Source of the DNA: a virus
Lineage: Duplodnaviria; Caudoviricetes
Strand: one strand, 5' to 3'
IMG/VR virus record: IMGVR_UViG_3300030331_000022
Span: 1 to 51,657 of that record
DNA length: 51,657 bases
The position numbers and the translations under genes are program-made. Every line of letters starts with the position of its first letter. Within the stretch, counting starts at the first letter, position 1. Below, piece after piece: positions 1 to 41,970 of this stretch. A model generated the notes under the pieces. The model did no database searches. It was not told where the DNA came from and saw only the letters and a program-made list of their open reading frames with translations.

Positions 1-2749
1 CTATTTCATTACTTGTGTCGCCTGTTGATTTAACTAAAATACCCTCATCACCTGCATCAGTACGTATTTCTAAATTTTTTGCTGGACTTGAGGTCCCAAT
101 TCCAACGTTGCCACGATCAAGAACAAGGTTGTCAGTAAATGACGTGCCATTATTTCTCAAAGTAAATGAATATTGGACTAGGCCAGATGAAACAACCTGA
201 TTGAGTTTTAAATCAAACTCACTACTAGACGTTAAAGAATACATCCAGTTTTGGACTACGTTTGTACCAACACCTTGTGCTGCGGGTTGTATAGTTAAAG
301 GAGCATCTTGATTTGTAGCTCCAACCCCAACGAAGCCATCAGTGTTAATTCGCATACGTTCAACAGCAGCACTCTCACTTGTACCTGAACTCCCACCAGG
401 AGCAGTAAAAAACTTTATGTTAGAGCCGCCTGTTCCACCACCAGCCCCACCTTTTAGTTGCAAGTCGGTACCTGGTTGGTTTGTACTACCTGCACCACTA
501 GAGCCTTGAATGATGCCAGTTGAGTTACCACCAGTAGCACCAACCACGAGAGAACCAAAGACATTGGTATTTTGACTGGAGTCGACCCGAATACCCTCTG
601 CGCCGCCAGTAACTAACGTCACCGTATCGCCTGTCGGTCTGGTCATGCCTGTGTTTGTGTCATTAGAAAAGGCAAAAGTTGGTGCTGAAACTGCGCCTGA
701 CGCACCTTGAATTTGATTATTGAATATGGCTGTTCCTGCATCTGACATGTCTAGGGTAAGGGCAGTTATTGTAGAACCACCATCGTTACCCCTAAATCTC
801 ATGTCATCATCTTGAACAGTGGAAATAATATCAACGTTGGCACCGTCAGTAATTTTAAATTGCATTTCTTGAGTACCATCAGCCGCAATCCTAACATCTC
901 CACCTGATACATCAAGGGTGATATCACCAGCAACATCAAAGGTTAGATCACCTGCACTCTCAAAGTCACCATTAGAACCATCGTGAGTAATTTTTAAGTC
1001 ACTGTCTGCACCAATGCTAAGTACAGCACCATCGTGATCTAAAAGAACATCACCTTTTATTGTAGTAAGAGATCCAACAGCATTACCAATAGTTACATCT
1101 ACTTCATCTTCAGCATTACCATCTCTTATTTCTAATCCTGATTGAGTTTCACCATCATGTGATGCCACTCTAAACTTCATGTAACCACCTGCACTTGCAG
1201 CAGCAGCAGCATTAATATGTGTTTCTATTGAGCCATAAGTAACATCAGCATTGTTCTCTGAGTTTCTACCTACAAAAAGTATTCTGCCTATTTCATCATC
1301 ACCAGCAGCACTTGCAGATTCTCTTTCAAATACCATTACAGGTCCAACAGAAGCATCTGCATCTGTAGATTTAAGAGTAAGTTGAGTAGAGTTATCAGAA
1401 GTTACAACTTCAACAGAGGTGTTAAAAACTGCAGAGCCACTAACATCTAGAGTACCATTAATATCAATATCTGTAGCAGTAAGATCAATTTCATCAGTAG
1501 CACCTAGTGACAATACGGTTCCACTAGAACCTTGAATAAACTGACTTGCGTCATTAAACATGATCTTATTAGTAGAGTTTAGTGTAAGTCCAGAACCATC
1601 AGTGTGTGTAAGAGTAGTATCACCATCATCACCAAATGATAACACTGCATTATCTGAGTCAAGAAACAAATCATCTGCTATAGTTAAATCACCTGTAGAG
1701 CTTAGTGTCATTTTAGCAGTGGCACTAGCAGCAGCAGTTTCAGATGCACCAGTAGTAAAAACTAATTTAGTAGAGTTAACACTAGAGGTAAACTCTGCCT
1801 CTGCTATAGCATGTATACCTGCAGCCACAGTAGCAGCATCTGTACCACTATCATCCCCTGCAGCAAACTCAATAGAACCAATAACTTCATTTGCAGTTAT
1901 TTCATTTTCTTCAGATTTAAGTTGTATTACTATTGGTTTATTATCACCTGTATTAGTGTTAGTAATTGTCAAACCTGTATCTGCTACATGAGTAACAGTT
2001 ATTTCACTATCTGCACCAAATGATAATACAGAGGCATCAGATAAAAGTTTAAGATCATTACCAAGCACTGCATCTTTAGCTACAGACAATCCACCATCTG
2101 TTTGTAGAGAGCCATCTGTTGTAGATGTTGCATCTGTAGCATCATCTGTTTTAAGGATACCTGCAGCAGTTACATTAGCTCCACTAAATGTAAGTGCAGT
2201 TGTAGATCCTGATTTAATTATTAAGTTACCTGATGTATTAGTTAATGCAGCATATTGTGTACCAGCATCTTTTAAAAATACATCACCACCATCTGCATCA
2301 AGCACAATGTCATCTGCAGTGTCAAGTATCAAATCACCAGTGTCATTTACAATGTAAGAGTTTGTTCCACCATGATACAAATTAAGATCTTCACTTGCCC
2401 CTAATGTTATACGTCCAACAGCACTATCACCTGTAAGATCATCTGCATCTGCATCTACAATAACTTTAATCGTATTAATAAACAAATCTTTAAAAGATAA
2501 AGAAGATGTACCCAAGTCTATTGCATTATTTGATTTAGGTGAAACAATCGTAGCACTAACGGTAATATCTTGTGCAGGACCAACAACAGATACTGGTCCA
2601 CCTTCAGCAGATGTACCATCATGTGTGTGACCACTTGTAGAAAATGCAGTTACAATGGCATCAAACTCTCCATCAAAGTCTGCAGCATTAATAACATTAC
2701 CGTCAGCAATATTATTGTCTGTATCGTTTCTTGTATAACCTGTTCCCAT
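1..2749 (-). CDS. Tail fibre / receptor-binding protein (partial, runs off the window start)
   Basis: Not in the ORF track because it has no stop in the window. ATG at 2749 (MGTGYTRNDTDNNIADGNVINAADFDGEFDAI...GHTHDG), open for more than 900 codons. Gly/Thr/Asp-rich beta-repeats and a GNVGIGTSSP motif typical of phage fibres; follows the tail genes. Confidence 0.85.
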   Translation of the reverse strand, partial: MGTGYTRNDTDNNIADGNVINAADFDGEFDAIVTAFSTSGHTHDGTSAEGGPVSVVGPAQDITVSATIVSPKSNNAIDLGTSSLSFKDLFINTIKVIVDADADDLTGDSAVGRITLGASEDLNLYHGGTNSYIVNDTGDLILDTADDIVLDADGGDVFLKDAGTQYAALTNTSGNLIIKSGSTTALTFSGANVTAAGILKTDDATDATSTTDGSLQTDGGLSVAKDAVLGNDLKLLSDASVLSFGADSEITVTHVADTGLTITNTNTGDNKPIVIQLKSEENEITANEVIGSIEFAAGDDSGTDAATVAAGIHAIAEAEFTSSVNSTKLVFTTGASETAAASATAKMTLSSTGDLTIADDLFLDSDNAVLSFGDDGDTTLTHTDGSGLTLNSTNKIMFNDASQFIQGSSGTVLSLGATDEIDLTATDIDINGTLDVSGSAVFNTSVEVVTSDNSTQLTLKSTDADASVGPVMVFERESASAAGDDEIGRILFVGRNSENNADVTYGSIETHINAAAAASAGGYMKFRVASHDGETQSGLEIRDGNAEDEVDVTIGNAVGSLTTIKGDVLLDHDGAVLSIGADSDLKITHDGSNGDFESAGDLTFDVAGDITLDVSGGDVRIAADGTQEMQFKITDGANVDIISTVQDDDMRFRGNDGGSTITALTLDMSDAGTAIFNNQIQGASGAVSAPTFAFSNDTNTGMTRPTGDTVTLVTGGAEGIRVDSSQNTNVFGSLVVGATGGNSTGIIQGSSGAGSTNQPGTDLQLKGGAGGGTGGSNIKFFTAPGGSSGTSESAAVERMRINTDGFVGVGATNQDAPLTIQPAAQGVGTNVVQNWMYSLTSSSEFDLKLNQVVSSGLVQYSFTLRNNGTSFTDNLVLDRGNVGIGTSSPAKNLEIRTDAGDEGILVKSTGDTSNEI

Positions 2750-2753
2750 TGTT

Positions 2754-5117
2754 TTACCTTCTTGTGTTTGTGCCGTACTCTAATGTCACTGTGTCAAGTG
2801 AAAAAGGTGGATCTGTACTATTACTTCTAAATTGTATTGCTGTTGTAAATCCTGTGCCTACTGTTTGTGTATTAAATAAGTTTTGAACTTTACCACCAAA
2901 CACAGCACCAGCATCTGTAATTCTAACATTACTTATAGTTTGTGTCAAAGCATTGCTTATAGTTATTGTAGTGCCATCTACATTTGTAATAGTAGTACCA
3001 CTAGGTATTCCTGTTCCTGCTATTGTATCACCAAATACCATATCAGAATTATCAGCCACAGTTATCGTAGTTCCTCCACTAGAGCCAGAACCAGTTGTTG
3101 CAAACTTAGCAAAAGTATTTACACCAAAGAATGCAATCTGTGCAGTTTCATTAGAGAAAGTTATTGCTGCAGGTTGCACAGAGTTTAATTCATCAAAATC
3201 AAACTTTAAATTAAAATCAAAATTAACTGCACCCTGTGGATCTGTAAATAAATTTGCTTTGTATACTGTTTTACGAATCCTTGGATCATTAAACGGCATA
3301 AAAGGTGATAGATATTCTGCAGATATATTAGATCCATCAAAACTATTACCGTCTTCCATTTTATAAAGAAGCCCATTGTCACCAGAAAAAACAATAATTT
3401 CGTTTGAGCCTACCATTTTACTTGATGCAGAAAATACTTCCATACCTCTTATTTCTGCAAATTGAAAGTCTGTGCCACCTTGAGGAGAAAACTGTGTAGC
3501 TATTATACCTTTAGCTGCAGCCCCAACTTGATCAGGATTAAATGCAAACAATCTATACTGTGACTTAGCTCTAATAGTTAAACTGGTAAATAAACTAGAT
3601 GATCTTATAAAATCACCCAAGGTAGACTGTATGGCTTTTGATATAATCCCTAAACCAAAGTCATTATTACGATCTGTAGCACTAAGTAATCTTAAACCAT
3701 CTGCAGTAAGAAACATAACGTCACCGCCTATTTCTTGAACAGTGTCACCATCAATACAACCTATATCTTCACTAATCGGTGCCAATGCAAAATTAGCTAA
3801 TGCTGTGCCTGTTATTTGTTGTATTGTTTTATCTGTAAATATTATAAGAGATTCTCTAAAAGGTATTAATGCTGTAACAGAACCGCCAACTCTAAAACTA
3901 CCACCACCATTACCCGATGTAAAATCACTATCCAATAATGGTCCTGTAAAAGAAACTACATCTCCCTTGCCATAAAATATATGTGTTTTAAAAGCAGTTA
4001 CATGTGTCGCAGATAATACATCAGATGGAGCACCTGTAAGCTCTACAAAGCTAGTACCATCATACAATGCAGGTGGGTTAGCTCCATCAACTATTGCAAC
4101 CTTACGTGTTCCTGTAAAGTTATATTCAGCAAATCTAGTTCTACCTGCACCTTCTCTGTTTAAACTTATAAACGTTACAGCAGCATTATCAGCAGGGGTA
4201 GATGCTAGGTTAGGACTTATTGCTAGTGTCTGTCCACCTGTACCACCAGCATCAGAAGTAACGGTATATACCTTATCAACATCAGCTATAGTAAACATAT
4301 CTCCTATTTGAGGAGCAACAGTTAATCCATCTACTGCTAATGTACCACCTGAGTTAGACCCACCATTAACCAACACAGTGCCATACGCAGGTACATTTAC
4401 TTTTGTAAAGCCACTACCAGATGTTTTATACAAGTCTGAGTTTAGTGCTACAATAACATCATCACCAAAAACTTCTACACCCTGTGTTCTGTAAGCAGTG
4501 TCATATGTTTTAAATGTTAATGCTGCACCATTTAATGGACTAAACTCTAATGCTACATCATTGCTTAAAGATTGTGAAGAAGATAAAACAATATTATTTT
4601 GATCTGTTACACTAGCCACAGTTACAGTTCCTGAAATACCTGTCCCTGTAACTTCCATTCCTGCTTCTATAGTGCCAGAATTTCCATCTAATACTAATGC
4701 TGTAGCACTACTTATTGCACCATTTACATTTGCTGTAGCACCAAGACTAGCAGATAGTGTTAACGTAGTTCTATTGTTACCAGCATCAAAAGATACACCT
4801 GTTATTGTATGTGTTCCTGTTATACCTGCTACAGTAAATGTATCTCCTGCTACAGGTGTAGTGTGTGTCCTAGCTACAGTTAGTGTAGTTCCTGTTTGAC
4901 CTTTTCCATCTACAACTGCTAGTCCGTATGGTGGTATCTTATTAGCATCAAACTTACTAAACCCAAGTATTCTCCTATACCCACCAACAATAGATGGCTC
5001 AAAGTTTTTTAGAGTTATTGCAGATCCAGGCATATTAATACCTTGTTGCAACGGACTTATATTTGTTACAAGCCCACCTCTAAACTCTACAGGAAACGTT
5101 TGTCGTTTAGTTGGCAT
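2754..5117 (-). CDS. Tail nozzle / tail tubular protein B-like structural protein with inserted small beta-rich modules
   Basis: 787 aa, N-terminal FRGGL..N, beta-propeller-like hydrophobic repeats, located between the adaptor and the fibre as in podoviruses. Confidence 0.65.
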   Translation of the reverse strand: MPTKRQTFPVEFRGGLVTNISPLQQGINMPGSAITLKNFEPSIVGGYRRILGFSKFDANKIPPYGLAVVDGKGQTGTTLTVARTHTTPVAGDTFTVAGITGTHTITGVSFDAGNNRTTLTLSASLGATANVNGAISSATALVLDGNSGTIEAGMEVTGTGISGTVTVASVTDQNNIVLSSSQSLSNDVALEFSPLNGAALTFKTYDTAYRTQGVEVFGDDVIVALNSDLYKTSGSGFTKVNVPAYGTVLVNGGSNSGGTLAVDGLTVAPQIGDMFTIADVDKVYTVTSDAGGTGGQTLAISPNLASTPADNAAVTFISLNREGAGRTRFAEYNFTGTRKVAIVDGANPPALYDGTSFVELTGAPSDVLSATHVTAFKTHIFYGKGDVVSFTGPLLDSDFTSGNGGGSFRVGGSVTALIPFRESLIIFTDKTIQQITGTALANFALAPISEDIGCIDGDTVQEIGGDVMFLTADGLRLLSATDRNNDFGLGIISKAIQSTLGDFIRSSSLFTSLTIRAKSQYRLFAFNPDQVGAAAKGIIATQFSPQGGTDFQFAEIRGMEVFSASSKMVGSNEIIVFSGDNGLLYKMEDGNSFDGSNISAEYLSPFMPFNDPRIRKTVYKANLFTDPQGAVNFDFNLKFDFDELNSVQPAAITFSNETAQIAFFGVNTFAKFATTGSGSSGGTTITVADNSDMVFGDTIAGTGIPSGTTITNVDGTTITISNALTQTISNVRITDAGAVFGGKVQNLFNTQTVGTGFTTAIQFRSNSTDPPFSLDTVTLEYGTNTRR

Positions 5118-5120
5118 GGA

Positions 5121-6065
5121 TTACAATACTCTGCTTGGTAGTATCTTAGTGTTCATTGCTCCTGTGGCAATAGCTGTTGAACGAACATAGTCATATCTAT
5201 TAATGTAAAGAGTACGCATATTTTTAATACCATCATCAAATGCACTTTTTAAAACCATAGCCTCTTGTGTTTCACCTCTAAACATATAAGCTGTATACAT
5301 AGCCCCATCTACAATTACATATCTAAATTGTACAGGTAAACTAGGAACATCTGTAGCTGCTGATAAATTAGTAGGCAGTTTGTAATAATCAAACTCTAAC
5401 ACATAAGGTTTGTCAGGGTATGGATAAAGTAAATAGTTATTGTCAGGGGTTCTTACAATAGCTCTAGGTACTTCTCCTTCGTTAAACTGTGTAACCACAG
5501 TGCTATTTGCTATAGTAGCTGCAGTTGTATTATTTGCTCCTCTAGTACATCCAGTAAAATCATTACCTGATATACCTGTGTAAGTTATTTCTTCAGCCCC
5601 TATATGCAAAGTACCCGTAGCCGAAAAGTTTGTTGTTGATGCGACAGTTATTGTTGTTACAGATGCAGATAGTCCAGAAGAAGCATTAACTGTAGTAGAT
5701 ACTATGGGGTCTTCTTGATTTGCATAATCTTTTGCTATGTATTCTTTATAGTCTAAAATACTTAAACTATTACCTATTGAACTTAAATTTACATCTTTTT
5801 TAATTCTTGCTGTAGAATAGTCTACAGACTTTGCATCTGTAGGTATAGAGTATCTAACTACACCTGCAGTTAAAGTTTTTGTTTCTGTATCATGGTTAAA
5901 TGGAAAGCCATACTCATGCTGATTAATATATCTTATAGAAGAGTTAATAGCATCCTTTACCATAGCATACTCACCTATTGCAGAGGCAAAATTACTAGCA
6001 GTAAGTTCAACCTCGTTTAGCCTTCTATTAACATCATTAACTAAACCTAAATAATCGTATGCCAT
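5121..6065 (-). CDS. Head-tail adaptor / tail tubular protein A-like
   Basis: N-terminal YLGLVNDVNRRLNE and C-terminal LYPYPD...P.LP.QF..VIVDGA pattern typical of podovirus adaptors; follows the capsid genes. Confidence 0.7.
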   Translation of the reverse strand: MAYDYLGLVNDVNRRLNEVELTASNFASAIGEYAMVKDAINSSIRYINQHEYGFPFNHDTETKTLTAGVVRYSIPTDAKSVDYSTARIKKDVNLSSIGNSLSILDYKEYIAKDYANQEDPIVSTTVNASSGLSASVTTITVASTTNFSATGTLHIGAEEITYTGISGNDFTGCTRGANNTTAATIANSTVVTQFNEGEVPRAIVRTPDNNYLLYPYPDKPYVLEFDYYKLPTNLSAATDVPSLPVQFRYVIVDGAMYTAYMFRGETQEAMVLKSAFDDGIKNMRTLYINRYDYVRSTAIATGAMNTKILPSRVL

Positions 6066-6085
6066 CTTATTCCCTTAGATCAAGC

Positions 6086-6112
6086 TAAAGGGGCCAACCT
6101 AAGTCAGCCCCT
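6086..6112 (-). terminator. Intrinsic terminator-like hairpin after the capsid and decoration genes
   Basis: Minus strand AGGGGCTGAC-TTAG-GTTGGCCCCT followed by TTAGCTT. The short U tract suggests partial read-through into the tail genes. Confidence 0.6.
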
Positions 6113-6119
6113 AAAGTTT

Positions 6120-6656
6120 TTATGCGAGTAGATCACGATCCACTTCATTAGCAGAGCTAGACTGTGTTACATCATCCAAGAGTACACATACTGCGTACAC
6201 ACGAATAATACCGCCAGTAATAGTTCCACCAGAAGTTTCAATTTCTACATCAATAGTATCTGCTGATGCAGTATATACTGGTAGTTGAGTACATACGCCA
6301 CCAGATGTAATTGGAGGAGTGTGTGCTCCTACTGATGCACCATCTAGATCAAACGATGCAACAAATACATCCACGTCTGTACCAGTAATACCTACATGAA
6401 TAGCAGAGTCTGTAGTAGTACCTTCCATTGCAGTGACAACTTTAAATCCTGCAAATAGGATCAAAGTGTTTGCAGGGACAGCAATAGCTTCAATAATATC
6501 ATTTGCTGCTAGTGCAGTACCACCGTTTTGTAGGATAGCATCTGCAAGATCAATATCGTTCTGCAGAGTTACTAAACTTCCACGAAGCTGTTTATTGCCA
6601 GTACCGCCATTATTGGAAGTAGAGGCTGAGTTCGTGCTCATCGAAATAGTAGCCAT
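6120..6656 (-). CDS. Putative capsid decoration / minor capsid protein
   Basis: 178 aa beta-rich ORF directly after the major capsid gene with a strong RBS (AAGGGAG) and before the terminator. Confidence 0.6.
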   Translation of the reverse strand: MATISMSTNSASTSNNGGTGNKQLRGSLVTLQNDIDLADAILQNGGTALAANDIIEAIAVPANTLILFAGFKVVTAMEGTTTDSAIHVGITGTDVDVFVASFDLDGASVGAHTPPITSGGVCTQLPVYTASADTIDVEIETSGGTITGGIIRVYAVCVLLDDVTQSSSANEVDRDLLA

Positions 6657-6672
6657 AATTCAATCTCCCTTC

Positions 6673-7746
6673 TTATGCTGCGTTATACTTGGCAGTGGTG
6701 ATAGCTTCTGGACGAAGAATCTTCCTACCATATAGATGCATACCACGAACAATGTCAGCAAAGCTGTCAGGGTCACGATATGTTTCTGTCTTATTAATCT
6801 GCTCTGCAGTTGCAACAGCAGAATCATGTCCAGCAACAATCACACCAAAATTTGAGTTTTGGTTAGCTGTTCCTGATGTTCCTGGACCTGTGCCTACGGC
6901 AGGAAGGTTTGAGGATACATACAAACGGAACCCGTGAAAGTTGTTGATTACAAGACCGTTACGTAGTCCACCTGACTCACCATAGTCTCCGTTCATAAAA
7001 CGGCTATCTTCGTCAGAAAGGATTTCCATAAACACTGGATCAATTACGAGCCAACGACCTTGTGTATCAACTTGTTGCTGATCAAGCAAACGTTTCATAC
7101 GTGCAATAATCATTGCAGGTGAAACAGTTGCAGTTGGAAGTGATGTGGCTCCAGGCATACGAGCAGTTACTGGAATCGAATGATCGCCAGCAGATGTCGT
7201 GGAGATGTTGCCAAAATCACCCTTCTTTAGTTTCATGCTTGAAAGCAGTTCATCATCACCTGCAGTCAAAACAGCTTTTTCACCACTTGCGGTGTCATTT
7301 GCTGTATCTGCCTTTGCATGTAATGCTGACTGTTTAAAGCCTGACATATAACCAAGAACTTCTTGGTCATACTGGTCAGCCAAACGATATGCTGCACGAT
7401 CTGTTGCCAGATCCATGAAGTTTACGTGACTGTGTGCCTCTTCGATGTCATCCATCTTAAAAGCAAAGTAGTTTGACTTGTCAACTACCAATGTGAAATC
7501 TTCATCGTCTAGGTCTTGTGCAGTGACAGTTGTGCCACGTGTATAAGCCTGAACGGAGATCTCAGGTTCTTTGATAATACGAACAGTATCACCTTGAGCA
7601 GAAATCTCCCCAAAGTAATCAGAGTTCGTAATATCCCCAACAGTAGCAGCCTTGCGAAAAGCAAGCTGAACCTGTTTGGAGTAGATTATAGGACTAAAAT
7701 TACCGTTAGGTAGGTTCCCATAACCCGATGCTGATGAAAAAGCCAT
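6673..7746 (-). CDS. Major capsid protein (HK97 fold)
   Basis: NFSPIIYSKQV, GEISAQGDTVRII and DSFADIVRGMHLYGRKILRPEA motifs; strong RBS AGGAGG; follows the scaffold gene. Confidence 0.92.
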   Translation of the reverse strand: MAFSSASGYGNLPNGNFSPIIYSKQVQLAFRKAATVGDITNSDYFGEISAQGDTVRIIKEPEISVQAYTRGTTVTAQDLDDEDFTLVVDKSNYFAFKMDDIEEAHSHVNFMDLATDRAAYRLADQYDQEVLGYMSGFKQSALHAKADTANDTASGEKAVLTAGDDELLSSMKLKKGDFGNISTTSAGDHSIPVTARMPGATSLPTATVSPAMIIARMKRLLDQQQVDTQGRWLVIDPVFMEILSDEDSRFMNGDYGESGGLRNGLVINNFHGFRLYVSSNLPAVGTGPGTSGTANQNSNFGVIVAGHDSAVATAEQINKTETYRDPDSFADIVRGMHLYGRKILRPEAITTAKYNAA

Positions 7747-7782
7747 GATATAATCCTCCTATAAGTTTGGCTTCACTATGAG

Positions 7783-7942
7783 CTAAACATATTTACATAG
7801 AGGCTGAATGATCTAATAGGGTGCATACTCTACTGATTGGCCTATCAGTTTTGTACGGGCCTATACACAAACAGGTAAGTCTTTTTGTTTAGGCTAATAT
7901 TAAGTATTCTTACTAGAAGGTAGTCCTATTAAGGGGCTTCTA
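7783..7942 (-). ncRNA. Structured 5' leader RNA of the major capsid gene (candidate cis-regulatory element)
   Basis: Nested stems readable by eye: CUAAACA/UGUUUAG, AGA/UCU, CUG/CAG, AUAGG/CCUAU, CGUAC/GUAUG, ACUGAU/AUCAGU, plus a separate UAGAAG/CUUCUA hairpin. Three CC / C..AC internal loops. Confidence 0.55.
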
Positions 7943-7952
7943 ACAATTATAC

Positions 7953-7985
7953 ATATAGTTATACTGTATATTTTTTATTTGTCAA
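7953..7985 (-). promoter_or_regulatory. Sigma70-like promoter upstream of the capsid gene
   Basis: Minus strand TTGACA-N16-TATAACTATA in the intergenic region. Confidence 0.65.
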
Positions 7986-7992
7986 CAGTATT

Positions 7993-8850
7993 TTATCGTG
8001 CAGAGCCAGATAAGTCATAAACAAACTTACCTGATCTGATTGATTCCATAATTGCGTCTGCAGCCTTTTCATATTGGTCTGCATTCATTTTAGCAACTTG
8101 AGATTCTTTAAACACGCCACTCGTATCTGTTGTTGCAGGTTCACTACGACTGGCACGACTATTAACTGATTTAGCTGCATCTTTTGAGCTATCTACTTTT
8201 TTAGTTTTAATGTTACGATCTGACTTATATAAATCAATAGCTCTTGCAGCAGAACGTGAGTCAGTATCATTTTCATATAATGCATCCTGTACCCACTTAG
8301 GTTGTTCATCTGCCCACTCATGAAAATCATCACTGTCTCTTATTTGACCAAAGTCAGGGTGAATTTGCATCAATTCTGCCTCTGCTTTTTCACGAGATGC
8401 AGTGGCTCTCATTTCATTTATTTCTTTTACTTTATCTTCTAATCCTGCAGATTGTTCTCTAGCTTTTTTAATTGCAATAGTTTCTACTATAGCTGCAACA
8501 TCAGGATGTTGTTTTGCCCAAGCATCAATATCTTCATCTGATTTAGGTAGACGTATTTCTTTTTGTGTAACTTCTTTTAGTTGCTTTTCAAGATTTTTAA
8601 ACTTGTCTTCCCAATCTTTTTCTTTTTGTTGCATGTGTCTGCGAAGATCACCATAACGTTTCTTAAAACTTTTTTCTTCTGCATTTACAGGTTCTTCTTC
8701 TTTAACTTCCTCTATAGATTCTTCATTTTTATTGTCAAGAAGTTCTTTTAGTTCCTGTTCATCTTTTTTTATTCTATTTTCATTTGCATTTTTTCTTTTC
8801 ATAAATGCGACTTTTTTTGGTTCTTCTTTAACCATTACTGTTTCATTCAT
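7993..8850 (-). CDS. Capsid scaffolding protein
   Basis: Charged coiled-coil protein directly upstream of the capsid gene; FKKRYGDLRRH and HPDF...F.EW..EQP motifs. Confidence 0.8.
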   Translation of the reverse strand: MNETVMVKEEPKKVAFMKRKNANENRIKKDEQELKELLDNKNEESIEEVKEEEPVNAEEKSFKKRYGDLRRHMQQKEKDWEDKFKNLEKQLKEVTQKEIRLPKSDEDIDAWAKQHPDVAAIVETIAIKKAREQSAGLEDKVKEINEMRATASREKAEAELMQIHPDFGQIRDSDDFHEWADEQPKWVQDALYENDTDSRSAARAIDLYKSDRNIKTKKVDSSKDAAKSVNSRASRSEPATTDTSGVFKESQVAKMNADQYEKAADAIMESIRSGKFVYDLSGSAR

Positions 8851-8863
8851 TATATTTCTTTCA

Positions 8864-8906
8864 CTAGGGCCATCGTAGCCATGTTGGATGGGGGATGAGT
8901 AGCCAG
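8864..8906 (-). ncRNA. Structured hairpin in the scaffold gene leader
   Basis: Minus strand CUGG-CUAC-UCAUC-CC-CCA(UCCAACA)UGG-CUAC-GAUGG-CC-CUAG: a hairpin with two CC/CUAC internal loops, ending 13 nt upstream of the ATG. Confidence 0.55.
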
Positions 8907-8919
8907 CATATCTAGCAAT

Positions 8920-9216
8920 TTAACGTGTTGCTAGTCCACGTGGTTTTTCCATAGCACTAGGCATAGGAATATCTTGTTCTATTCTTTCAGGTTGTCTAGG
9001 CATGTCTGTTGGAATAGCATCCATTGTTTTATCAGGACGTTCAACAAAATTAAAAGCACTACCTAATTCTGGTCCAAGAACTTTACGAAGTACATCTGCT
9101 TGAGGTGTACCCTCCATATTTCTAAGGACTTCTTTTTCACTTTCTTCTAAATTATTATAATTACTAATAGCAAAGTCAATAAATTGAATTAGTGGATTAT
9201 TTTCTTCAGATTCCAT
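8920..9216 (-). CDS. Hypothetical acidic protein (C-terminal GLATR)
   Basis: 98 aa, TAATG-coupled to the upstream gene. Confidence 0.7.
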   Translation of the reverse strand: MESEENNPLIQFIDFAISNYNNLEESEKEVLRNMEGTPQADVLRKVLGPELGSAFNFVERPDKTMDAIPTDMPRQPERIEQDIPMPSAMEKPRGLATR

Positions 9217-11243
9217 TATATTTCCTTTTTAATAAAAAGTCCAACAATAAAGGTTTGTATTGCACGATAATAATATCTACTTGCTACACGCAGTGTAAAC
9301 ACACGTTTACCATTTGCCCACTCAATACATTCCTTAAACTCTTTGTATACTGTGTCTGCAGTTCCATTAGCAATATGTTTACGTCCTAAATATCTGTAGC
9401 CACGCCGCATTGTTTCACCCCACCATTTATTATGAAGTGTACGTTTACACCAATCTACGGCATTTTCTCTATCTGTATTTTGAAACATACCACTTTGCAA
9501 TGCATGAGTTGCAATAACACACGAGTCTTTTGTTTTATCTCCAGCTTTATCCTCTGCTGTATCATTTTCTGAAGTTTTTCTAGCTTCTTTAAAAGGATTT
9601 TTTTGATATGCATATTCTCCTTTATTTACAGCCCTATGTAAACTACCACCATATTTCTTAGCTTGAGCAATATCATTAGTAGATAAACCCATAGCTTCAC
9701 CCTCTGAATCAGATAATCCTCTATCTATAAAATCATCTTGTTTAGCACGAAGTCTTGCAATAGCTGCGTGATGGTTTGCAACTGCTGCATTGCCATCTCT
9801 AACTGCATTATCAAATGATTGTTGCTCACGAACATTTAAGTCACCTGATTTAACTCCTGTAACAGGATCTTTACTATAACTTTCTCCACTACCTGCAATA
9901 TCACCCATATCTTGAACATTATATTTTGATGTATATTTATTGTAAAAATTTTGTCTTCCCTCTGATGTAAAAGTTTCTTTTAACCCTTCTCCAATATCTT
10001 GTACTATTCCTCTAGCACCTTTAAATACATCTCCTATTAAACCTGTTTCTTCATATTCTTTTATACGAGGATCTTCTTTCCAAGCATCTCCAAAATTATT
10101 ATTTAAAGACTCTACAATACGATTTTCTTGATTTTTTGCTCCAAATCTACCAGCAAGCCCAACTATACCTGCACCTGGAATTATACTTAGTCCAGTCGTT
10201 GCAGATAATAATTTTTTATTATCAAGATATAAATTAATTAAATTTTCTTTATGCTCTGTTGAAGTATCTTTTTTTGCTAATGTATCTCTAAATTCTTTAC
10301 TACTTTGTCTTTGCTGAGATTCACGCATTCTAGAAAGAAGTTGTTTATCATCATCATCATCTTGTCTAGTTACTTGTGTTGTTTGAACTTGTGTATCTTG
10401 AATAGGTTGCGTTTCTTGTTGATTTAAATATTCATCATAAGGAATAAAACCTTCAGGTAACGGTGTAGTAGGCACATTGTTATATGTACGTACATCTCTA
10501 ATTTCTCCAGTTTCTGGATTAATATATTTTACAGTTTTAGATACATCTCCTGCTTGAGGCACATCTAAGTCAGGTGTAGTTATTGTAGTCTGCACACTTT
10601 GTGGGTCAACAAATTTTGGTAAAAAACCACTTACCGTATCTGTTTGTTGAGGTTCAGTTGTAGTTCCTACTGTTTGTGTTATATCAGCAGGAGTAAAAGC
10701 ACTAGCAGGAGTAATCTGTGGACCTGCAGTAATTTGCCCTAATGATTGTTGATACACAGAAGGTTGATATCCTGCTATGCCTGTAACCATATTTGGATTA
10801 GTATTTTGTATTGTGTTAGCTTGTAAATTAGGAGATACAAATGTTCCCATCTGTGCTTCTACAACTCCACCACGATTCATTTCTTTAGGTTTATCTTCTG
10901 CTGGTCCACTTACAATAATAAGATCAGCCATATCAAATGGAAGATCATCAGGTATAGTGGCTTCTTCACTATTACCCATTTGTCCCATAGCTTCCATCTT
11001 TTTTAAACCCATTTTGGCTTCTTGACGCAGTTGCATTAATTTTTCAAGACCAATATAACGAGTTACATCTTCAGGAAAAACAAACTCACCCTCACTTATC
11101 TTAACATCTATATCATCACGTACACCTTTTTTAGTTCCTCCTATAGGAACTTTGTTACCAGATACTTCATCTATTTCACCGCCTTCATCTTCAAGGCCAC
11201 CACGTGCAAATAATTCCATTTGTTTTTCCATAAGTTTACTCAC
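9216..11243 (-). CDS. Putative virion/internal protein with a C-terminal CFI-box-like (CVIATH) domain
   Basis: 675 aa; N-terminal DDIDVKISEGEFVFPEDV.RYIG motif common in marine podovirus head-module proteins; Q/T-rich low-complexity middle region. Confidence 0.65.
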   Translation of the reverse strand: MSKLMEKQMELFARGGLEDEGGEIDEVSGNKVPIGGTKKGVRDDIDVKISEGEFVFPEDVTRYIGLEKLMQLRQEAKMGLKKMEAMGQMGNSEEATIPDDLPFDMADLIIVSGPAEDKPKEMNRGGVVEAQMGTFVSPNLQANTIQNTNPNMVTGIAGYQPSVYQQSLGQITAGPQITPASAFTPADITQTVGTTTEPQQTDTVSGFLPKFVDPQSVQTTITTPDLDVPQAGDVSKTVKYINPETGEIRDVRTYNNVPTTPLPEGFIPYDEYLNQQETQPIQDTQVQTTQVTRQDDDDDKQLLSRMRESQQRQSSKEFRDTLAKKDTSTEHKENLINLYLDNKKLLSATTGLSIIPGAGIVGLAGRFGAKNQENRIVESLNNNFGDAWKEDPRIKEYEETGLIGDVFKGARGIVQDIGEGLKETFTSEGRQNFYNKYTSKYNVQDMGDIAGSGESYSKDPVTGVKSGDLNVREQQSFDNAVRDGNAAVANHHAAIARLRAKQDDFIDRGLSDSEGEAMGLSTNDIAQAKKYGGSLHRAVNKGEYAYQKNPFKEARKTSENDTAEDKAGDKTKDSCVIATHALQSGMFQNTDRENAVDWCKRTLHNKWWGETMRRGYRYLGRKHIANGTADTVYKEFKECIEWANGKRVFTLRVASRYYYRAIQTFIVGLFIKKEI

Positions 11244-11460
11244 TTTTTAAAACTTCATCACGTAATAACTTTAATCTACGTAATTGATATATAGCACCTT
11301 GTGCTCTATATACTATTTGTGAATTGTCTGTTTGTTCCATATTACGATGTTGCTGCTCTATAAGCATATCTAAATATTTACTGAACTGGTCCCACTGCTG
11401 CTGGTTGCTGACCAGCTTCTTGAGCTTGTTGAGGTGCTCCTTGTTGTTGTGCATTTCCAC
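11236..11460 (-). CDS. Small phage protein downstream of portal (Bbp19-like position)
   Basis: Helical 74 aa with a YRAQG motif; overlaps the portal 3' end and is coupled to the next gene. Confidence 0.65.
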   Translation of the reverse strand: MEMHNNKEHLNKLKKLVSNQQQWDQFSKYLDMLIEQQHRNMEQTDNSQIVYRAQGAIYQLRRLKLLRDEVLKSE

Positions 11461-13519
11461 TAAATCCTTGTTCTTGTGGTGTTGGTGCTTGTCCTGTGCC
11501 TATTGTGCCACCTCCTGCTCCTGTCGGATCTGCTGGATTAGCACCTGCTGGTGTTTGTTGTTGTGGTTGTTCTTGTTGAAATTGTTTCATTAACTCAGCT
11601 TGTAATGCAGCCTCACTCATATTATTAGTGACTTTTTCAGGATCAAGTTCAAGAGACTTGGCAATCTCTCTAATAATATATTGAAACTTAGCAAATGGTG
11701 CAAGGGCAGGGCTAGATGCTATCTGCATAAACTGCATAAGTCTTTGACTTCGTACTTCATTAGCCATCAGACTTTCTGTACCACGTGCTTTTACTTCTAA
11801 GTCTCCTTTAATATCTGGATCAAAGTCAAACTGCATATTAAATCTAAATAAACCCTCACCAAGAGGACGTAACAAATAGTCATCTATATTTTTAATTACA
11901 TTTTTTATACTGCCTTGAGCAGCACCCATAAGCATACTGATACCAGAAGCAGTACGGCCCACACCCGATACGCCTGTTTGACCATGTGCAAAAGATGGGA
12001 ATCCAGTTGATTCATCTGCTAATACCCTCGCCTTATCAAATAGCTGCAAGTTTTCTGCAGCAACATTAGGAAACTTTGTACCAAAGATAGCTTGTCCTGG
12101 TGCTCCACCCTGTCTCCTAAATACTTTCCCTGGATATACTGTTAAGTCTTGGCCTGGGACTAAGTTAGTTTCATCTACCTCTATAAGAAGATTACCAGAT
12201 AATACAGCATTGTCAACAGCCATTCTCATAAAACCATTCATAAGAGTTTGGGTATCATCCATATTTTCTGCAATGCCCACCCCAAAAAATGAATATGGAT
12301 TTAATTCATACGGCACAGCCATATAAGGAATACGAGCAGGTTTAAATGGATTAAGAACCATACGGAGTAGTTTACCATTACAGATCCATACGTTTGCTTG
12401 TAGTTCATCTATATCTTGCATTTCAGGTGGTATATCTACCCCTTGTTCAATTAACGCCTCAACTTCAACAGAACCCCAGTATTCTAAAACTTCGAAACGA
12501 TAAACTCCATGTTCTGTTGCATAGTCAGATAAATCATCTTCCCAATATTCTTTATTATAATTTTCACCTAATTCAATTGCTTCATCAATTACGGAGTCCC
12601 TAAAATAAGGACGTTTTTTTAATGCTCTCATTTGAGAACGAGATAGTTTATGCCTTTCTATTACATATTGTGCCTCATCCATATTATTTGCATCTGGATC
12701 GGGATAAAGATTCCACACAGAAACATGAGATACTTGTGGTATTGTTTTCATAATAGGAGAATATTCACCATCATCTCCCCAATTAGGATACTCTTTGTCT
12801 ACAGCAAACGGTCCTTTCATTACACCTGTGCCAAATAAGGCCATTTCAAATGCAGTGCTTCTTAAATGTTTACTAGCACTAGATTCTTCTAGCTGATCAT
12901 GTATTTTCTTTTGCATTTTTTTAGCAGCAATCATAGCTGGACTAAATGTAACTGCTGTTGGAGTTTGGCCTATACCTTCTTTTAAATTATCTATATCCTC
13001 TAGTTTATCCTCTAATGGTCCTAAACTTTCTAGTAATGTTTTAACTGTTGCTCCTGCAGGAAAATCTTTACCATCTCCTGCAAATCCATATGGATTTACT
13101 GGATCATTAATAGTTGATTCTTTTAGCTGTTCAGGTTCTTGTGGATCAAATGTTACATCTGCAACTACGCCTTCAGGAAGTTCTGTAGGATCTACTGTTA
13201 AAGGAAACTTTTGCCCTGCAAATAATACATCAACTATTTGCCCATAAGCAGCCAGTGTTTTTGTTTTAGTTATTTTAATAAATACACGAGACTTCTCTGC
13301 CTCTGTAAACTGAACATCTGGACTATATACACCACGATAGTTACGATAAGCACGAAGCCAACGTTCTTCATCTTGTTGCCTATAATCTTCTGCTCTATTA
13401 AATTTTTCCATAATAAAAGGAATTATATTAGCAGTTTTATAATCCTCAACATTAGATTCTTCACTATCATCTAATACAACAGCATTATCTTCAATAAAAC
13501 CTTCAGTATCTTCTGCCAT
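11378..13519 (-). CDS. Portal protein
   Basis: About 713 aa directly after the terminase; FFGVGIAENMDDTQ, RTASGISMLMGAA and Q/P-rich tail. Start revised to the ATG at 13519 (RBS GGAAGGA, TAATG overlap with the upstream small ORF). Confidence 0.9.
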   Translation of the reverse strand: MAEDTEGFIEDNAVVLDDSEESNVEDYKTANIIPFIMEKFNRAEDYRQQDEERWLRAYRNYRGVYSPDVQFTEAEKSRVFIKITKTKTLAAYGQIVDVLFAGQKFPLTVDPTELPEGVVADVTFDPQEPEQLKESTINDPVNPYGFAGDGKDFPAGATVKTLLESLGPLEDKLEDIDNLKEGIGQTPTAVTFSPAMIAAKKMQKKIHDQLEESSASKHLRSTAFEMALFGTGVMKGPFAVDKEYPNWGDDGEYSPIMKTIPQVSHVSVWNLYPDPDANNMDEAQYVIERHKLSRSQMRALKKRPYFRDSVIDEAIELGENYNKEYWEDDLSDYATEHGVYRFEVLEYWGSVEVEALIEQGVDIPPEMQDIDELQANVWICNGKLLRMVLNPFKPARIPYMAVPYELNPYSFFGVGIAENMDDTQTLMNGFMRMAVDNAVLSGNLLIEVDETNLVPGQDLTVYPGKVFRRQGGAPGQAIFGTKFPNVAAENLQLFDKARVLADESTGFPSFAHGQTGVSGVGRTASGISMLMGAAQGSIKNVIKNIDDYLLRPLGEGLFRFNMQFDFDPDIKGDLEVKARGTESLMANEVRSQRLMQFMQIASSPALAPFAKFQYIIREIAKSLELDPEKVTNNMSEAALQAELMKQFQQEQPQQQTPAGANPADPTGAGGGTIGTGQAPTPQEQGFSGNAQQQGAPQQAQEAGQQPAAVGPVQ

Positions 13520-23658: not shown

Positions 23659-23697
23659 TTATATAACACTTGACTATTTATGAAAGTGTTATATAAC
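23658..23697 (+). promoter_or_regulatory. Perfect 14-bp inverted repeat overlapping a sigma70-like promoter
   Basis: GTTATATAACACTT-N12-AAGTGTTATATAAC, containing TTGACT-N16-TATAAC. Confidence 0.6.
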
Positions 23698-36256: not shown

Positions 36257-36266
36257 TATAACTATA
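36234..36266 (+). promoter_or_regulatory. Sigma70 promoter for the SSB/nuclease/RNR genes
   Basis: TTGACA-N17-TATAAC(TATA), upstream of RBS AAGGAG. Confidence 0.65.
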
Positions 36267-41953: not shown

Positions 41954-41970
41954 TTGCCCCTTAATTTTTT
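41936..41970. terminator. Bidirectional intrinsic terminator at the convergence point
   Basis: A-run, AAGGGGC-TTAGTT-GCCCCTT, then AATTTTTT, between convergent stop codons. Confidence 0.75.

Follow-up and report, generated by a model that had tools for sequence, protein, structure and literature searches.

A conserved, predicted RNA leader with three copies of a small asymmetric loop precedes the major capsid gene of HMO-2011-type phages

The 160-nt region 5′ of the major capsid gene in a marine HMO-2011-type phage is, on the comparative sequence evidence laid out here, a genuine and strongly conserved folded RNA that carries three copies of one small asymmetric loop. The window, that is, the whole stretch of phage DNA analyzed, is 51.6 kb long, and the leader is read on its minus strand, where an earlier sequence-only reading had placed three CC / C(U)nAC loops and a closing stem within 7783-7942; each lies exactly where it was placed. 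The comparisons are best explained by a structured 5′ leader of the major-capsid mRNA, ∼190 nt long, which probably controls the amount of capsid protein made, a function that we infer. The features of the locus, in the direction of the minus strand, are as follows.

7993-8850, minus strand: upstream gene of 285 aa in the scaffold position, phrog_13678 (function unknown), assigned by gene order and PHROG match
7980-7985, minus strand: −35 box TTGACA of the capsid promoter, read in the sequence, the transcription start being only predicted
7958-7963, minus strand: −10 box TATAAC, conserved as TATAACTA, read in the sequence and in relatives
7910-7946, minus strand: P1 hairpin near the predicted 5′ end, with a 10-bp outer stem, module 1 and an inner 3-bp hairpin
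7919-7937, minus strand: module 1, with closing pair G7937-C7919, short strand CC (7935-7936) and long strand ACUAC (7920-7924)
7783-7892, minus strand: core, a single long irregular hairpin from P2 to P7 with modules 2 and 3, predicted by covariance models R1 and R2
7886-7892, minus strand: 5′ strand of P2, CUAAACA, pairing with UGUUUAG at 7783-7789
7872-7883, minus strand: 5′ strand of P3 (7880-7883), long strand of module 2 (CUUAC, 7875-7879) and 5′ strand of P4 (CUG, 7872-7874), from alignment A3
7853-7864, minus strand: 5′ strand of P5 (7860-7864), short strand of module 3 (CC, 7858-7859) and 5′ strand of P6 (CGUAC, 7853-7857), from the MAFFT alignment
7833-7848, minus strand: P7, apical hairpin CUGAU-AGGCCA-AUCAG, dispensable, as it is missing or replaced in several lineages
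7816-7828, minus strand: 3′ strand of P6 (GUAUG, 7824-7828), long strand of module 3 (CAC, 7821-7823) and 3′ strand of P5 (CCUAU, 7816-7820), from the alignment
7798-7806, minus strand: 3′ strand of P4 (CAG, 7804-7806), short strand of module 2 (CC, 7802-7803) and 3′ strand of P3 (UCU(A), 7798-7801), resembling an anti-Shine-Dalgarno (anti-SD) sequence in the window's lineage
7755-7760, minus strand: Shine-Dalgarno (SD) sequence AGGAGG, read in the sequence
6673-7746, minus strand: gene of the major capsid (head) protein, 357 aa, with ATG at 7746-7744 (phrog_267, E 3.4e-63)

The homologue of this capsid protein in HMO-2011 is annotated as a P22-type coat protein (PF11651), and the order of scaffold-position gene and capsid gene recurs in 13 cultured relatives. 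The promoter-like pair TTGACA (7985-7980)-N16-TATAAC (7963-7958) is among five of its kind in the window. A match to TTGAYW-N15-18-TAWAAC occurs in 103 of the 136 related loci for which at least 150 nt of upstream sequence is present, with a spacer of 16 in 95 of these; a generic σ70 scan omits the capsid −10 box because it demands T at the final position. Many relatives also carry palindromes over the capsid promoter. These do not stand in one register across relatives, and a palindromic promoter operator is not claimed.

The layout of the leader is a σ70-like promoter with P1 close behind it, an A/C-rich linker, and then the long hairpin P2-P7. From the 3′ end of the model to the start codon there is a median of 25 nt (range 10-95 in 93 loci), and 78 of the 93 loci fall in the 20-29 nt bin; the spacing is 74-95 nt in three loci. 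The core thus adjoins the ribosome-binding site of the capsid gene, the position of an operator. In Manatee Spring phage, one of the 13 cultured relatives, an HNH gene inserted between the scaffold and capsid genes parts the promoter from the core, and the core still adjoins the capsid start.

Taken alone, the leader of the window folds no better than its shuffles (minimum free energy −49.5 versus −45.2 ± 4.4 kcal/mol, z −0.96; 35 of 200 shuffles fold as well), so its thermodynamics cannot by themselves support the finding, and the support is comparative. Structure-blind MAFFT alignments reveal invariant loop letters between variable helices. We scored covariation against shuffles and slid controls. 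With 80 distinct close relatives, the core scores 0.309 as compared with 0.128 ± 0.007 for shuffles, a value reached by 0 of 500; with 93 distinct and diverse sequences, it scores 0.453 as compared with 0.151 for shuffles and at most 0.106 for slid controls, and compensatory changes are present in all 28 modeled core pairs. The nine top mutual-information column pairs of the alignment are all modeled base pairs, and the same scan yields no further long-range pairs. On the coding strand G-U/U-G cells number 150 and A-C/C-A cells 83, as expected for an RNA on that strand. RNAalifold with default settings and a gappy MAFFT alignment recovered almost nothing; once columns were trimmed and RIBOSUM scoring was used, P1, P4-P7, and an SD pairing emerged. 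The earlier proposal that the helices differ in sequence while the loop is retained is borne out by these data, as is its expectation that homologous leaders would show covariation and loop conservation.

Conservation is concentrated in the loops. Among the 93 sequences, 19 columns are at least 90% conserved, and 16 of the 19 belong to modules 2 and 3, counted with the pairs on either side of them. Hardly any variation is seen in the loop residues G-CC / (N)YAC-C. The three modules share one form, in which a G-C pair closes the loop, one strand is an invariant CC, and the opposite strand reads (N)0-2-Y-A-C; loop sizes range from 2x3 to 2x5. The closing pair covaries from G-C to A-U or U-A while CC and AC remain fixed, and each of the three modules lies between two helices that themselves covary.

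The first copy reads UAGAAG (7942-7937)-CC (7936-7935)-CCU (7934-7932)-UAAU-AGG (7927-7925)-ACUAC (7924-7920)-CUUCUA (7919-7914) and lies in P1. For P1, we used 81 distinct sequences chosen by a regular expression that demands at least three outer and at least two inner pairs; in this set, pairing holds in 90.9% of cells, and the score for covariation reaches 0.897, as compared with 0.233 for shuffles. The short strand is CC in 81/81, the long strand is CUAC in 63, CCAC in 10, and UUAC in 8, and the loop is closed by G-C in 70 and by A-U in 11. HMO-2011, the CRP-603 group, and the phiM6 group lack the P1 module or have a plain hairpin in its stead; by regular expression it is missing from 21 of 142 loci, and a plain hairpin occupies its position in CRP-603, CRP-2, CRP-207, and HMO-2011.

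The second and third copies had been proposed to be nested in one long stem, and they are, in a stem whose closing helix, CUAAACA (7892-7886) / UGUUUAG (7789-7783), covaries. This helix, P2, is the weakest of the core, with 70-73% of cells paired, and it is wholly replaced in other clades, by GCAAAC/GUUUGC in HMO-2011 and by CAGAAGA/UCUUCUG in CRP-235. Copy 2 is AGA (7882-7880)-CUUAC (7879-7875)-CUG (7874-7872) paired with CAG (7806-7804)-CC (7803-7802)-UCU (7801-7799). Its short strand is CC in 91 of 93 sequences and CCG in 2, with G194, C195, and C196 of alignment A3 conserved at 97-100%, the same level as A47, C48, and C49 on the side of the long strand. That long strand always ends in AC, usually with a pyrimidine 1-2 nt before it, and often has an extra A at its 5′ end (ACUAC in 35/93). 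The adjoining P4 is paired in 100% of cells, with the pair types CG/UA, UA/AU/CG/GU, and GC/AU/CG/GU. Copy 3 is AUAGG (7864-7860)-CC (7859-7858)-CGUAC (7857-7853) paired with GUAUG (7828-7824)-CAC (7823-7821)-CCUAU (7820-7816). Here GGCCC is invariant across 76 MAFFT-aligned sequences, the short strand is CC in 91/93, and the long strand is CAC in 66/93, most of the remainder being NYAC. The second pair of P6 is A-U in 32, G-C in 32, and G-U in 11, and its mutual information of 1.04 is among the highest. In the position of P7, four loci (L041, L052, L056, and L063) have merely a short hairpin.

Covariance models R1 and R2 of the core score the window at 90.7 and 89.7 bits, respectively, over 7771-7907. 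That the leader precedes the capsid gene in HMO-2011-type genomes, as the sequence-only reading supposed, is confirmed by matches that include HMO-2011 itself, which R1 scores at 54 bits though it is absent from the seed. In 93 of 95 sources of the first set there is a single copy, which lies on the coding strand shortly before the capsid start. Two sets of more distant capsid loci behave likewise, with one match each, on the coding strand and beside the capsid start, in 60 of 84 and 71 of 80; every core match is on the capsid coding strand. In HMO-2011-, CRP-, and phiM6-type phages, which infect Alphaproteobacteria of three orders (SAR116 for HMO-2011, Rhodobacteraceae for the CRP phages, and Sinorhizobium for phiM6), the core occurs once per genome and always immediately 5′ of the capsid start. 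The loop letters are near-invariant though the capsids are only ∼55% identical. We note that near-invariance across such capsids and host orders is as compatible with a ligand, the ribosome, or a purely structural need as with a phage protein.

Searches elsewhere returned nothing comparable. No core match was found in ∼70 actinomycete prophage capsid loci, and no second core was found in the window (nothing else better than E 0.59 with R1, and none at E up to 1 with R2), where a regular-expression scan for the P1 module gave only weak 4-5-bp chance look-alikes. Two whole metagenome-assembled genomes (MAGs) that carry related phage contigs have no other R1 match. The module-2 strand resembles what we take to be a conserved 16S segment. 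Mimicry of 16S rRNA by this strand was considered and rejected, as two Rhodobacteraceae-family 16S loci gave no R1 match with filters off and E up to 10; the same two loci gave no R2 match and no regular-expression match to the motif.

No Rfam 15 family matches the leader: region 7500-8300 searched at E up to 10 gave only three matches of 10-15 bits against cutoffs of 50-60, the whole window gave 0 matches at the gathering threshold, and the loci of seven relatives gave 0 at E up to 0.1. Literature on HMO-2011 phages (RNA motif, UTR, and transcriptome plus capsid) holds no report of a capsid leader by title or abstract, literature on capsid RNA motifs gave no description of it, and the words "promoter" and "noncoding" are absent from PMC6918029. 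The leader may, however, already be listed in the 2023 IMG/VR catalogue of anonymous structured-RNA candidates by Fremin et al. (PMC10690425), which reports covarying intergenic structures from IMG/VR upstream of phage genes, some of them capsid genes. In source and in kind those candidates are like the leader; the ones named in the running text of PMC10690425 differ in lying upstream of another capsid family, PHA00201, and in measuring 29-151 nt, and as that text presents them, they were not individually analyzed and stand outside Rfam. The leader had been called an undescribed cis-regulatory RNA. It is without a match in Rfam 15 and in the literature searched, and the regulatory part of that description is one that we infer.

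The loops had further been likened to C-loop motifs. By the definition given in the relevant sections of PMC2952876 and PMC9516175, the C-loop signature is two cytosines around an exposed adenine, a protein-binding site whose longer strand usually starts with C and tolerates one inserted base; the motif is also present in a bacterial mRNA under translational control, thrS (PMC9516175). As with the C-loops those sections cover (rRNA helices, the thrS operator, and PSTVd loop 26), the leader has an asymmetric internal loop within a hairpin stem, and its long strand places two C residues around an A, as CAC in module 3 and as C-U-A-C in modules 1 and 2, where the one inserted base has a reported counterpart in one rRNA C-loop. 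Judged by that published definition, the long-strand signature is present as CAC in 66/93 sequences for module 3 and as CUAC (63) or CCAC (10) in 81 for P1. The short strand is different: it is CC in the leader (91/93, 91/93, and 81/81), versus a single free base, C172, in PSTVd, the one worked example compared. A further difference is that the long strand of module 2 usually begins with an extra A. The near-invariant G-C closing pair, with its rare A-U or U-A, is compatible with the two base triples that C-loops form between bases of the long strand and the Watson-Crick pairs beside the loop, and is not diagnostic. The comparison thus leaves the likeness standing at the level of the published signature and at odds with the worked example in the short strand, and we refer to the loops as C-loop-like by sequence signature, a C-loop geometry being putative.

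The SD has a complement in the leader of the window's lineage, namely the module-2 3′ strand GCCUCU. When 42 leaders were folded without constraint, the SD was unpaired with a median probability of 0.26, and 53% of its pairing mass went to this strand. With the covariation-supported core enforced, the unpaired probability of the SD rose to 0.64 for a median penalty of +7.4 kcal/mol, so the selected fold seems to need a stabilization unseen by the energy model. The module-2 strand is among the five best SD partners in 31 of 93 leaders, and the share depends on its type (25/44 for GCCUCU, 0/16 for GCCACU, and 0/4 for GCCGCU). A family-wide anti-SD switch is ruled out by the clades that have no anti-SD pairing, and we keep it as a lineage-specific possibility. 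For the window's lineage, a stabilized covariation-supported fold would free the ribosome-binding site and so act as an ON switch, and an unfolded core would leave the SD sequestered by GCCUCU.

In RNA libraries, contigs of two metatranscriptome runs span the leader-capsid junction, X19 covering 7556-7782 without mismatches and X20 covering 7518-7907. These are Logan contigs with small shares (0.11 and 0.08) that are silent on ends, strand, and level, and the bridging contigs document presence only, since DNA carry-over is possible. As side observations that we do not use as evidence, the contigs from these runs give no cover over 7914-7986 and thin or absent cover of the scaffold gene, and X19 stops at 7782, one base from the foot of P2. 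Among proteins, a Pfam search of 30 small and medium ORFs of the window found no RNA-binding domain. A zf-CHCC ORF (33141-33383) was considered as a conserved partner and rejected; it has no homologue in 50,697 phage records, and an ORF without a homologue in cultured phages cannot be a conserved partner.

The explanation that we put first, though we hold it at somewhat less than an even chance, is that the leader may serve as a multisite docking platform for a trans-acting factor that sets the translation or stability of the capsid mRNA. The three loops would form C-loop-like three-dimensional modules, each a docking site for the same factor, of which the likeliest kind is a protein, with a phage head protein or a conserved host protein as candidates; occupancy of the sites would then govern translation initiation, the lifetime of the capsid message, or both. 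The scaffold protein of P22 autoregulates post-transcriptionally. A bolder version, which we consider doubtful, is that the leader could represent a new class of RNA operator, in which three C-loop-like modules, one on a hairpin close to the 5′ end and two stacked about one helical turn apart in a long hairpin, would be read by a single conserved factor (a head-assembly protein or a host translation component) to time or dose capsid synthesis, with the anti-SD strand held in module 2 as the switch, across one of the ocean's most abundant phage groups and its soil relatives.

Known systems offer partial parallels. Operators of the thrS type and those of T4 gene 32 and regA are structured leaders by the ribosome-binding site, in which a protein-recognized module sets translation. 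The phage leader is like them in adjoining the ribosome-binding site of the downstream gene and differs in being far larger, ∼190 nt with three sites. It differs from thrS-type operators also in that no mimicry of a regulator's cellular target was found, the cellular RNAs tried being 16S rRNA and two MAG genomes. We know of no precedent for three C-loop copies in one leader. The capsid mRNA of another podovirus, that of T7 gene 10, has its own promoter, a stem-loop at the extreme 5′ end, and a leader that favors high expression; unlike the leader described here, it is short, is without a repeated internal-loop module, and has no sequence or covariance similarity to it.

The T7 gene 10 stem-loop is, for all that, a precedent for what we regard as the strongest competing reading, an unlikely one in our estimate, by which the leader is a passive stabilizer or insulator. 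P1 and the rod-like core would shield an abundant late mRNA from 5′-end-dependent decay and fix the context of the ribosome-binding site, the loops being architectural elements of helical twist and stacking, with no trans-acting factor and no switch. P1 does begin 8-25 nt past the conserved −10 box in most relatives that have both the P1 module and a recognized promoter, close to the predicted 5′ end. The plain hairpins kept by lineages that lack the P1 module, the failure to recognize a partner protein in the window, and the absence of a terminator or attenuator between core and SD also agree with this reading. C-loops, moreover, are reported to raise local helical twist in the passage of PMC9516175 that cites Afonin and Leontis. 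What speaks against it is that protection calls for stable helices, not for three loops with invariant letters, and here the helices drift while 16 of the 19 top columns lie in the loops and their flanks. A selected fold ∼7 kcal/mol worse than the predicted optimum would also be odd for a pure stability element.

That energetic cost and the competition with SD pairing would instead be natural in a riboswitch-like sensor, in which the repeated loops bind a small ligand or a metal ion, stabilizing the core and freeing the SD. Loop letters invariant across phages of hosts in three orders are in keeping with such a sensor, and known riboswitch classes include tandem similar domains. The leader, however, has no multihelix junction or pseudoknot, the mutual-information scan having added no long-range pairs, and it has no Rfam match; there are lineages that dispense with the P1 copy or the apical domain. 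As for an expression platform, there is no terminator, and the SD-sequestering alternative predicted in the window's lineage is missing from whole clades. We consider a sensor of this kind distinctly improbable.

Slighter still is the probability that we give to a processing signal, by which RNase III or RNase E would cut the long hairpin to leave a capsid mRNA with a defined and stable 5′ end, or a separate small RNA. The T7 RNase III sites are a precedent for hairpin cleavage, the core has the shape of a long coaxial hairpin interrupted by asymmetric internal loops, and in Manatee Spring phage, where it follows the HNH gene, a cut would free the capsid message from a longer transcript. RNase III sites, however, are not known to need invariant CC/YAC loops, and contig X20 runs through the whole core; nothing here shows cleavage.

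An antiterminator RNA of the HK022 put type, carrying RNA polymerase through the late operon, would fit a leader that immediately follows a promoter and opens a run of same-strand structural genes. We reject it as very improbable because there are no convincing intrinsic terminators to read through (9 terminator-like sites in 1-12000 against 5.7 ± 1.9 expected, the three on the minus strand being weak), and because the leader stops, in the median, 25 nt short of the start codon, with the core staying by the capsid start rather than the promoter where the HNH gene is inserted. That the region acts at the level of DNA, for instance through repeated protein-binding sites or as a signal for packaging or replication, rather than as RNA, is hardly credible: the promoter region does carry palindromes, but the compensatory changes preserve pairing rather than sequence, G-U outnumbers A-C by 150 to 83 on the coding strand, all matches are on that strand, and the motif letters sit in unpaired loops of the RNA fold.

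HMO-2011-type and CRP-type podophages infect SAR116 and Roseobacter bacteria and have been described as among the most abundant marine phages. A PHROGs scan of 10 large proteins found no RNA polymerase, and this, taken with the host-type capsid promoter, makes post-transcriptional dosing or timing of the capsid plausible. The leader offers a well-defined target, with ∼20 near-invariant nucleotides in three repeated loops and over 200 natural variants that show compensatory changes; for CRP-1, HMO-2011, and phiM6, there are phage-host pairs in culture in which it could be mutated. The covariance model is also of use in annotation, as it marks the start of the capsid gene and its promoter in fragmentary viral contigs. 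If the C-loop-like triple repeat with its invariant CC holds, it would be a new natural use of the C-loop motif.

The folded leader lies on the minus strand between the 285-aa gene in scaffold position and the major head protein gene, 3' of one of five similar promoter-type sites in the window (pattern TTGAC(A/T)-N16/17-TA(T/A)AAC). Gene assignments are from PHROGs.

7993-8850, minus strand, 285-aa gene in scaffold position, phrog_13678 (function unknown)
7747-7992, minus strand, scaffold-capsid gap of 246 nt
6673-7746, minus strand, major head protein gene, phrog_267 (E 3.4e-63)
23670-23697 and 36234-36262, plus strand, promoter-type sites
22084-22057, 21886-21859 and 7985-7958, minus strand, promoter-type sites

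Two of the five sites head the leftward structural arm and the capsid promoter is another; TATA follows at four and ATAT at one, and a folded leader stands 3' of the capsid promoter only. The large terminase, the portal and a 675-aa gene lie upstream on the same strand, and a PHROGs scan of ten large window proteins recognised no RNA polymerase. An inverted repeat, AUACUGU...ACAGUAU (7961-7991, minus strand), covers the -35 box, extends to the -10 box and accounts for a spurious Rfam match to mir-84; it may serve as an operator, or else be the upstream message's 3' hairpin. Palindromes at the -35 box also occur in relatives, in a register that is not shared. Elsewhere in the window, a tyrosine-integrase-like gene (27656-28780, plus strand, phrog_1, E 7e-36) points to a possible capacity for integration, and two very large ORFs (41961-45797, 1278 aa, and 47722-50991, 1089 aa, both minus strand) went unmatched in PHROGs at E 1e-5.

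The three motifs and closing stem proposed in the sequence-only reading are present letter for letter at 7783-7942 when the minus strand is read out. Folded alone, the window leader is no more stable than its shuffles (z -0.96; 35 of 200 fold equally well or better), and the proposed long stem is absent from the predicted optimum. A search of Rfam 15 returned only noise for 7500-8300 (three matches at 10-15 bits, E >4), nothing for the entire window at gathering score and nothing at E <=0.1 for the loci of seven relatives, so that no family in that release explains the leader in these sequences.

The window is a virus record of 51.6 kb from IMG/VR. Its nearest cultured relatives, the Roseobacter phages CRP-1, CRP-345, CRP-9 and CRP-13 together with Puniceispirillum phage HMO-2011, share about 68-71% of their nucleotides with it across the scaffold, leader and capsid. 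For comparison we took the best 80 of at least 600 IMG/VR stretches matching the capsid protein (81-95% amino-acid identity); the 81 upstream sequences reduce to 65 distinct 270-nt leaders. Their structure-blind MAFFT alignment conserves a promoter-like TTGACA-N16-TATAAC, followed by short identical blocks (GCC, CUACC, ACC, GGCCC, ACCC, GCC) with intervening helices that vary in sequence. The long scaffold-capsid spacer is present in all 13 HMO-2011-/CRP-type GenBank relatives (HMO-2011, eleven CRP phages and the Manatee Spring metagenomic genome) and in Sinorhizobium phage phiM6, and by eye the same blocks recur there with different helices: P2 is GCAAAC/GUUUGC in HMO-2011 and CAGAAGA/UCUUCUG in CRP-235, P4 is CUC/GAG in CRP-603 and CAG/CUG in CRP-3, and P5 is AUGG/CCAU in CRP-1. 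The proposal that the helices differ and the loop is retained holds in relatives, where the loop letters are nearly invariant and the helices vary.

The core, a long hairpin of helices P2-P7 (7783-7892), was examined for covariation. In alignment A1, where 76 core sequences were aligned by MAFFT and the window's pairs projected on, the invariant columns are ACC, GGCCC, CC and GCC. The covariance model built from it (R1; 141 positions, 28 pairs) recovers three phages outside its seed: HMO-2011 at 54.1 bits, the Manatee Spring phage at 36.2 bits and phiM6 at 26.9 bits (E 0.0098). Across 95 sources (441,500 bases, both strands), R1 gives 93 matches at E <=0.01, a single one per source and all immediately 5' of the capsid start; CRP-738 and phiM6 are not detected at that database size and threshold. 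When 80 distinct close rows are aligned (A2), 85.8% of cells are paired, two-sided changes occur in 25 of 28 pairs, and the covariation score is 0.309 against 0.128 +/- 0.007 in shuffles (0 of 500 reach 0.309) and at most 0.093 in slid controls. With 93 distinct diverse rows (A3), 83.7% of cells are paired against 62.5% in shuffles and the score is 0.453 against 0.151 +/- 0.007 (slid controls at most 0.106), with two-sided changes in 28 of 28 pairs; covariation in homologous leaders, a check proposed in the sequence-only reading, is present. Since alignments fitted to a model are biased towards it, three model-independent checks matter: in a MAFFT alignment made without the model, P4 pairs completely, using three pair types, and pairs one and two of P6 covary; in a blind mutual-information scan of all A3 column pairs, the top nine are modelled pairs; and G-U/U-G cells number 150 in A3 versus 83 A-C/C-A cells, as RNA pairing on the capsid strand would lead one to expect. 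The weakest-supported helix is P2 (70-73% paired).

The search was extended with R2, a model rebuilt from A3.

Matches of the two core models in further sets of loci
80 loci fetched by the phiM6 capsid: R1, 41 matches at E <=1, 29 below 0.01
The phiM6-capsid set with CRP-738 and three genome loci (84): R2, 60 of 84 at E <=0.1
80 loci fetched by the CRP-3 capsid: R1, 51 at E <=1; R2, 71 of 80 at E <=0.1
80 bacterial/MAG contigs with a capsid relative: R1, 5 matches, all at capsid identity >=56%; R2, 6 matches

All matches lie on the capsid strand, immediately 5' of the capsid start, and many non-seed R2 matches score 54-64 bits. Neither model matches about 70 actinomycete prophage capsid loci (28-39% identity), and R2 matches neither of two 16S loci; the whole window holds one R2 copy, and two whole MAGs hold no further copy. 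Seven genome_contigs of about 20-63 kb (L256-L261 and L263), with MAG labels of Neomarinimicrobiota, Methanobacteriota, Bacteroidetes, Blastopirellula, Rhodovulum and Rhodospirillales, all carry the window phage's capsid and six of them the leader; several of them probably come from phages and were binned with genomes to which they do not belong.

Upstream of the core, the P1 hairpin (7910-7946 in the window) was sought with the regular expression 'stem-G/A-CC-hairpin-NYAC-C/U-stem', demanding at least three outer and two inner pairs. Of the 142 loci that have a core match, 121 yielded a candidate, and three candidates were dropped as dubious. The 81 distinct sequences aligned readily, with a covariation score of 0.897 against 0.233 and 90.9% of cells paired, a percentage partly built in because the filter required three outer and two inner pairs; the filter does not explain how varied the eight outer pairs are. 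In most relatives with a P1 module and a recognised promoter, P1 starts 8-25 nt past the -10 box, which puts it close to the predicted 5' end or right at it. In HMO-2011, the CRP-603/-2/-207 group and the phiM6 group, the module gives way to a hairpin that is plain or altered.

Composition of the three internal-loop modules (P1 module, 81 distinct sequences; modules 2 and 3, 93 each)
P1 module: short strand CC 81; long strand CUAC 63, CCAC 10, UUAC 8; closing pair G-C 70, A-U 11
Module 2: short strand CC 91, CCG 2; long strand always ending in AC (ACUAC 35, AUUAC 11, CCAC 9, CUUAC 6, CCUAC 6, others fewer); closing pair C-G 90, U-A 3
Module 3: short strand CC 91; long strand CAC 66, the remainder mostly NYAC; closing pair G-C 90, A-U 2

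Of 19 core columns conserved at 90% or more, 16 fall within modules 2 and 3 or the pairs that flank them. The three loops are therefore a single motif, defined by a G-C pair, a CC strand and an opposite strand of the form (N)0-2-Y-A-C. Published accounts of the C-loop describe an asymmetric internal loop in a hairpin, whose longer strand usually begins with C, with two multi-paired cytosines and an exposed adenine; it tolerates one insertion, is a known protein-binding site and occurs in a translationally regulated bacterial mRNA (PMC9516175, PMC2952876). The C-loop comparison made in the sequence-only reading stands as far as this signature, which the modules match, except that the two invariant free cytosines of their short strand depart from it; a shared three-dimensional form, base triples included, is one we infer. 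Leaders lacking P1 have a longer, 4-5-nt NYAC strand in module 3 in 10 of 22 cases, versus 6 of 71 with P1 (A3 columns 170-176; phylogenetically non-independent sequences), a hint, and only that because few lineages are involved, that two 'long' modules may be wanted. Between P4 and P5, most window-clade relatives have a conserved purine-rich internal loop, AAGUA(U/C) // AGAAAA (A1 columns about 53-60 and 139-146), where the window has another loop; it is similar to the AGUA/GAA signature of the bulged-G motif (loop E / sarcin-ricin).

The distance from the model's 3' end to the start codon has a median of 25 nt, and the 20-29 nt bin holds 78 of 93 loci. Inserts of about 50-70 nt separate core and Shine-Dalgarno (SD) sequence in CRP-13 (L086, 1519-1614) and in two further loci (L069, L081), with start-codon spacings of 74-95 nt. 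In the Manatee Spring phage (L087, Podoviridae sp. ctYwJ313), an HNH endonuclease gene (1231-1800) lies between the capsid promoter and the core, and the core (1755-1888) is intact, overlaps the end of that gene and still adjoins the capsid start, which argues for action at the capsid ribosome-binding site or mRNA and not at the promoter. Contigs from two metatranscriptome runs span leader and capsid gene (7556-7782, identical; 7518-7907, 15 differences) and attest presence only. The identical one (X19, 227 nt) stops at 7782, one base off the P2 foot; such contigs are uninformative on RNA ends.

The conserved, repeated and position-fixed loops have the appearance of recognition sites and the variable helices that of a scaffold presenting them, and for that reason we favor, at somewhat under an even chance, a docking platform for a trans factor that would control translation and/or stability of the capsid mRNA. 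As to a partner, Pfam on 30 small and medium window ORFs, and a zinc-finger ORF compared with phage records, yielded none that we recognised. That ORF (80 aa, 33141-33383, plus strand) encodes a zf-CHCC finger (PF10276, E 1.5e-9) and has no tblastn match among 50,697 phage records. Competition for the SD was assessed by folding the 42 leaders in which both a promoter and an SD could be recognised. Folded freely, the SD is unpaired with a median probability of 0.26, and 53% of its pairing goes to the 10-nt 3' strand of module 2; with the covariation-supported pairs enforced, the unpaired probability is 0.64 at a median cost of +7.4 kcal/mol. The selected fold therefore differs from the one the energy model prefers, and would be favored by whatever stabilises the loops. 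The SD-module-2 link is lineage-specific: the strand ranks in the top five SD partners for 31 of 93 leaders overall, the figures by type being 25 of 44 with GCCUCU, 0 of 16 with GCCACU and 0 of 4 with GCCGCU. Release of the SD would be how the switch works in the window's own lineage.

The main rival to a docking platform, a stabiliser or insulator working free of any factor, keeps a modest probability. A ligand sensor is unlikely, and a processing site quite unlikely. No terminator was found in the leader and none convincing in the operon, and an antiterminator is highly improbable. A DNA element is barely credible. The analysis demonstrates the fold, how it is conserved, where it lies and that Rfam lacks it, and from these we infer regulation, a partner and what the loops are in three dimensions.

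Titles and abstracts on HMO-2011-type phages gave no link to an RNA motif, UTR or leader, and the words promoter and noncoding are absent from the CRP phage paper (PMC6918029). Fremin et al. 2023 (PMC10690425) derived 8,495 anonymous candidates by working through the intergenic regions of IMG/VR, and the leader or a fragment may be among them; the RNA can be called undescribed with respect to Rfam 15 and the searched literature, but perhaps not to that set. We file it as a conserved structured phage mRNA leader, here made of a triple C-loop-like module.
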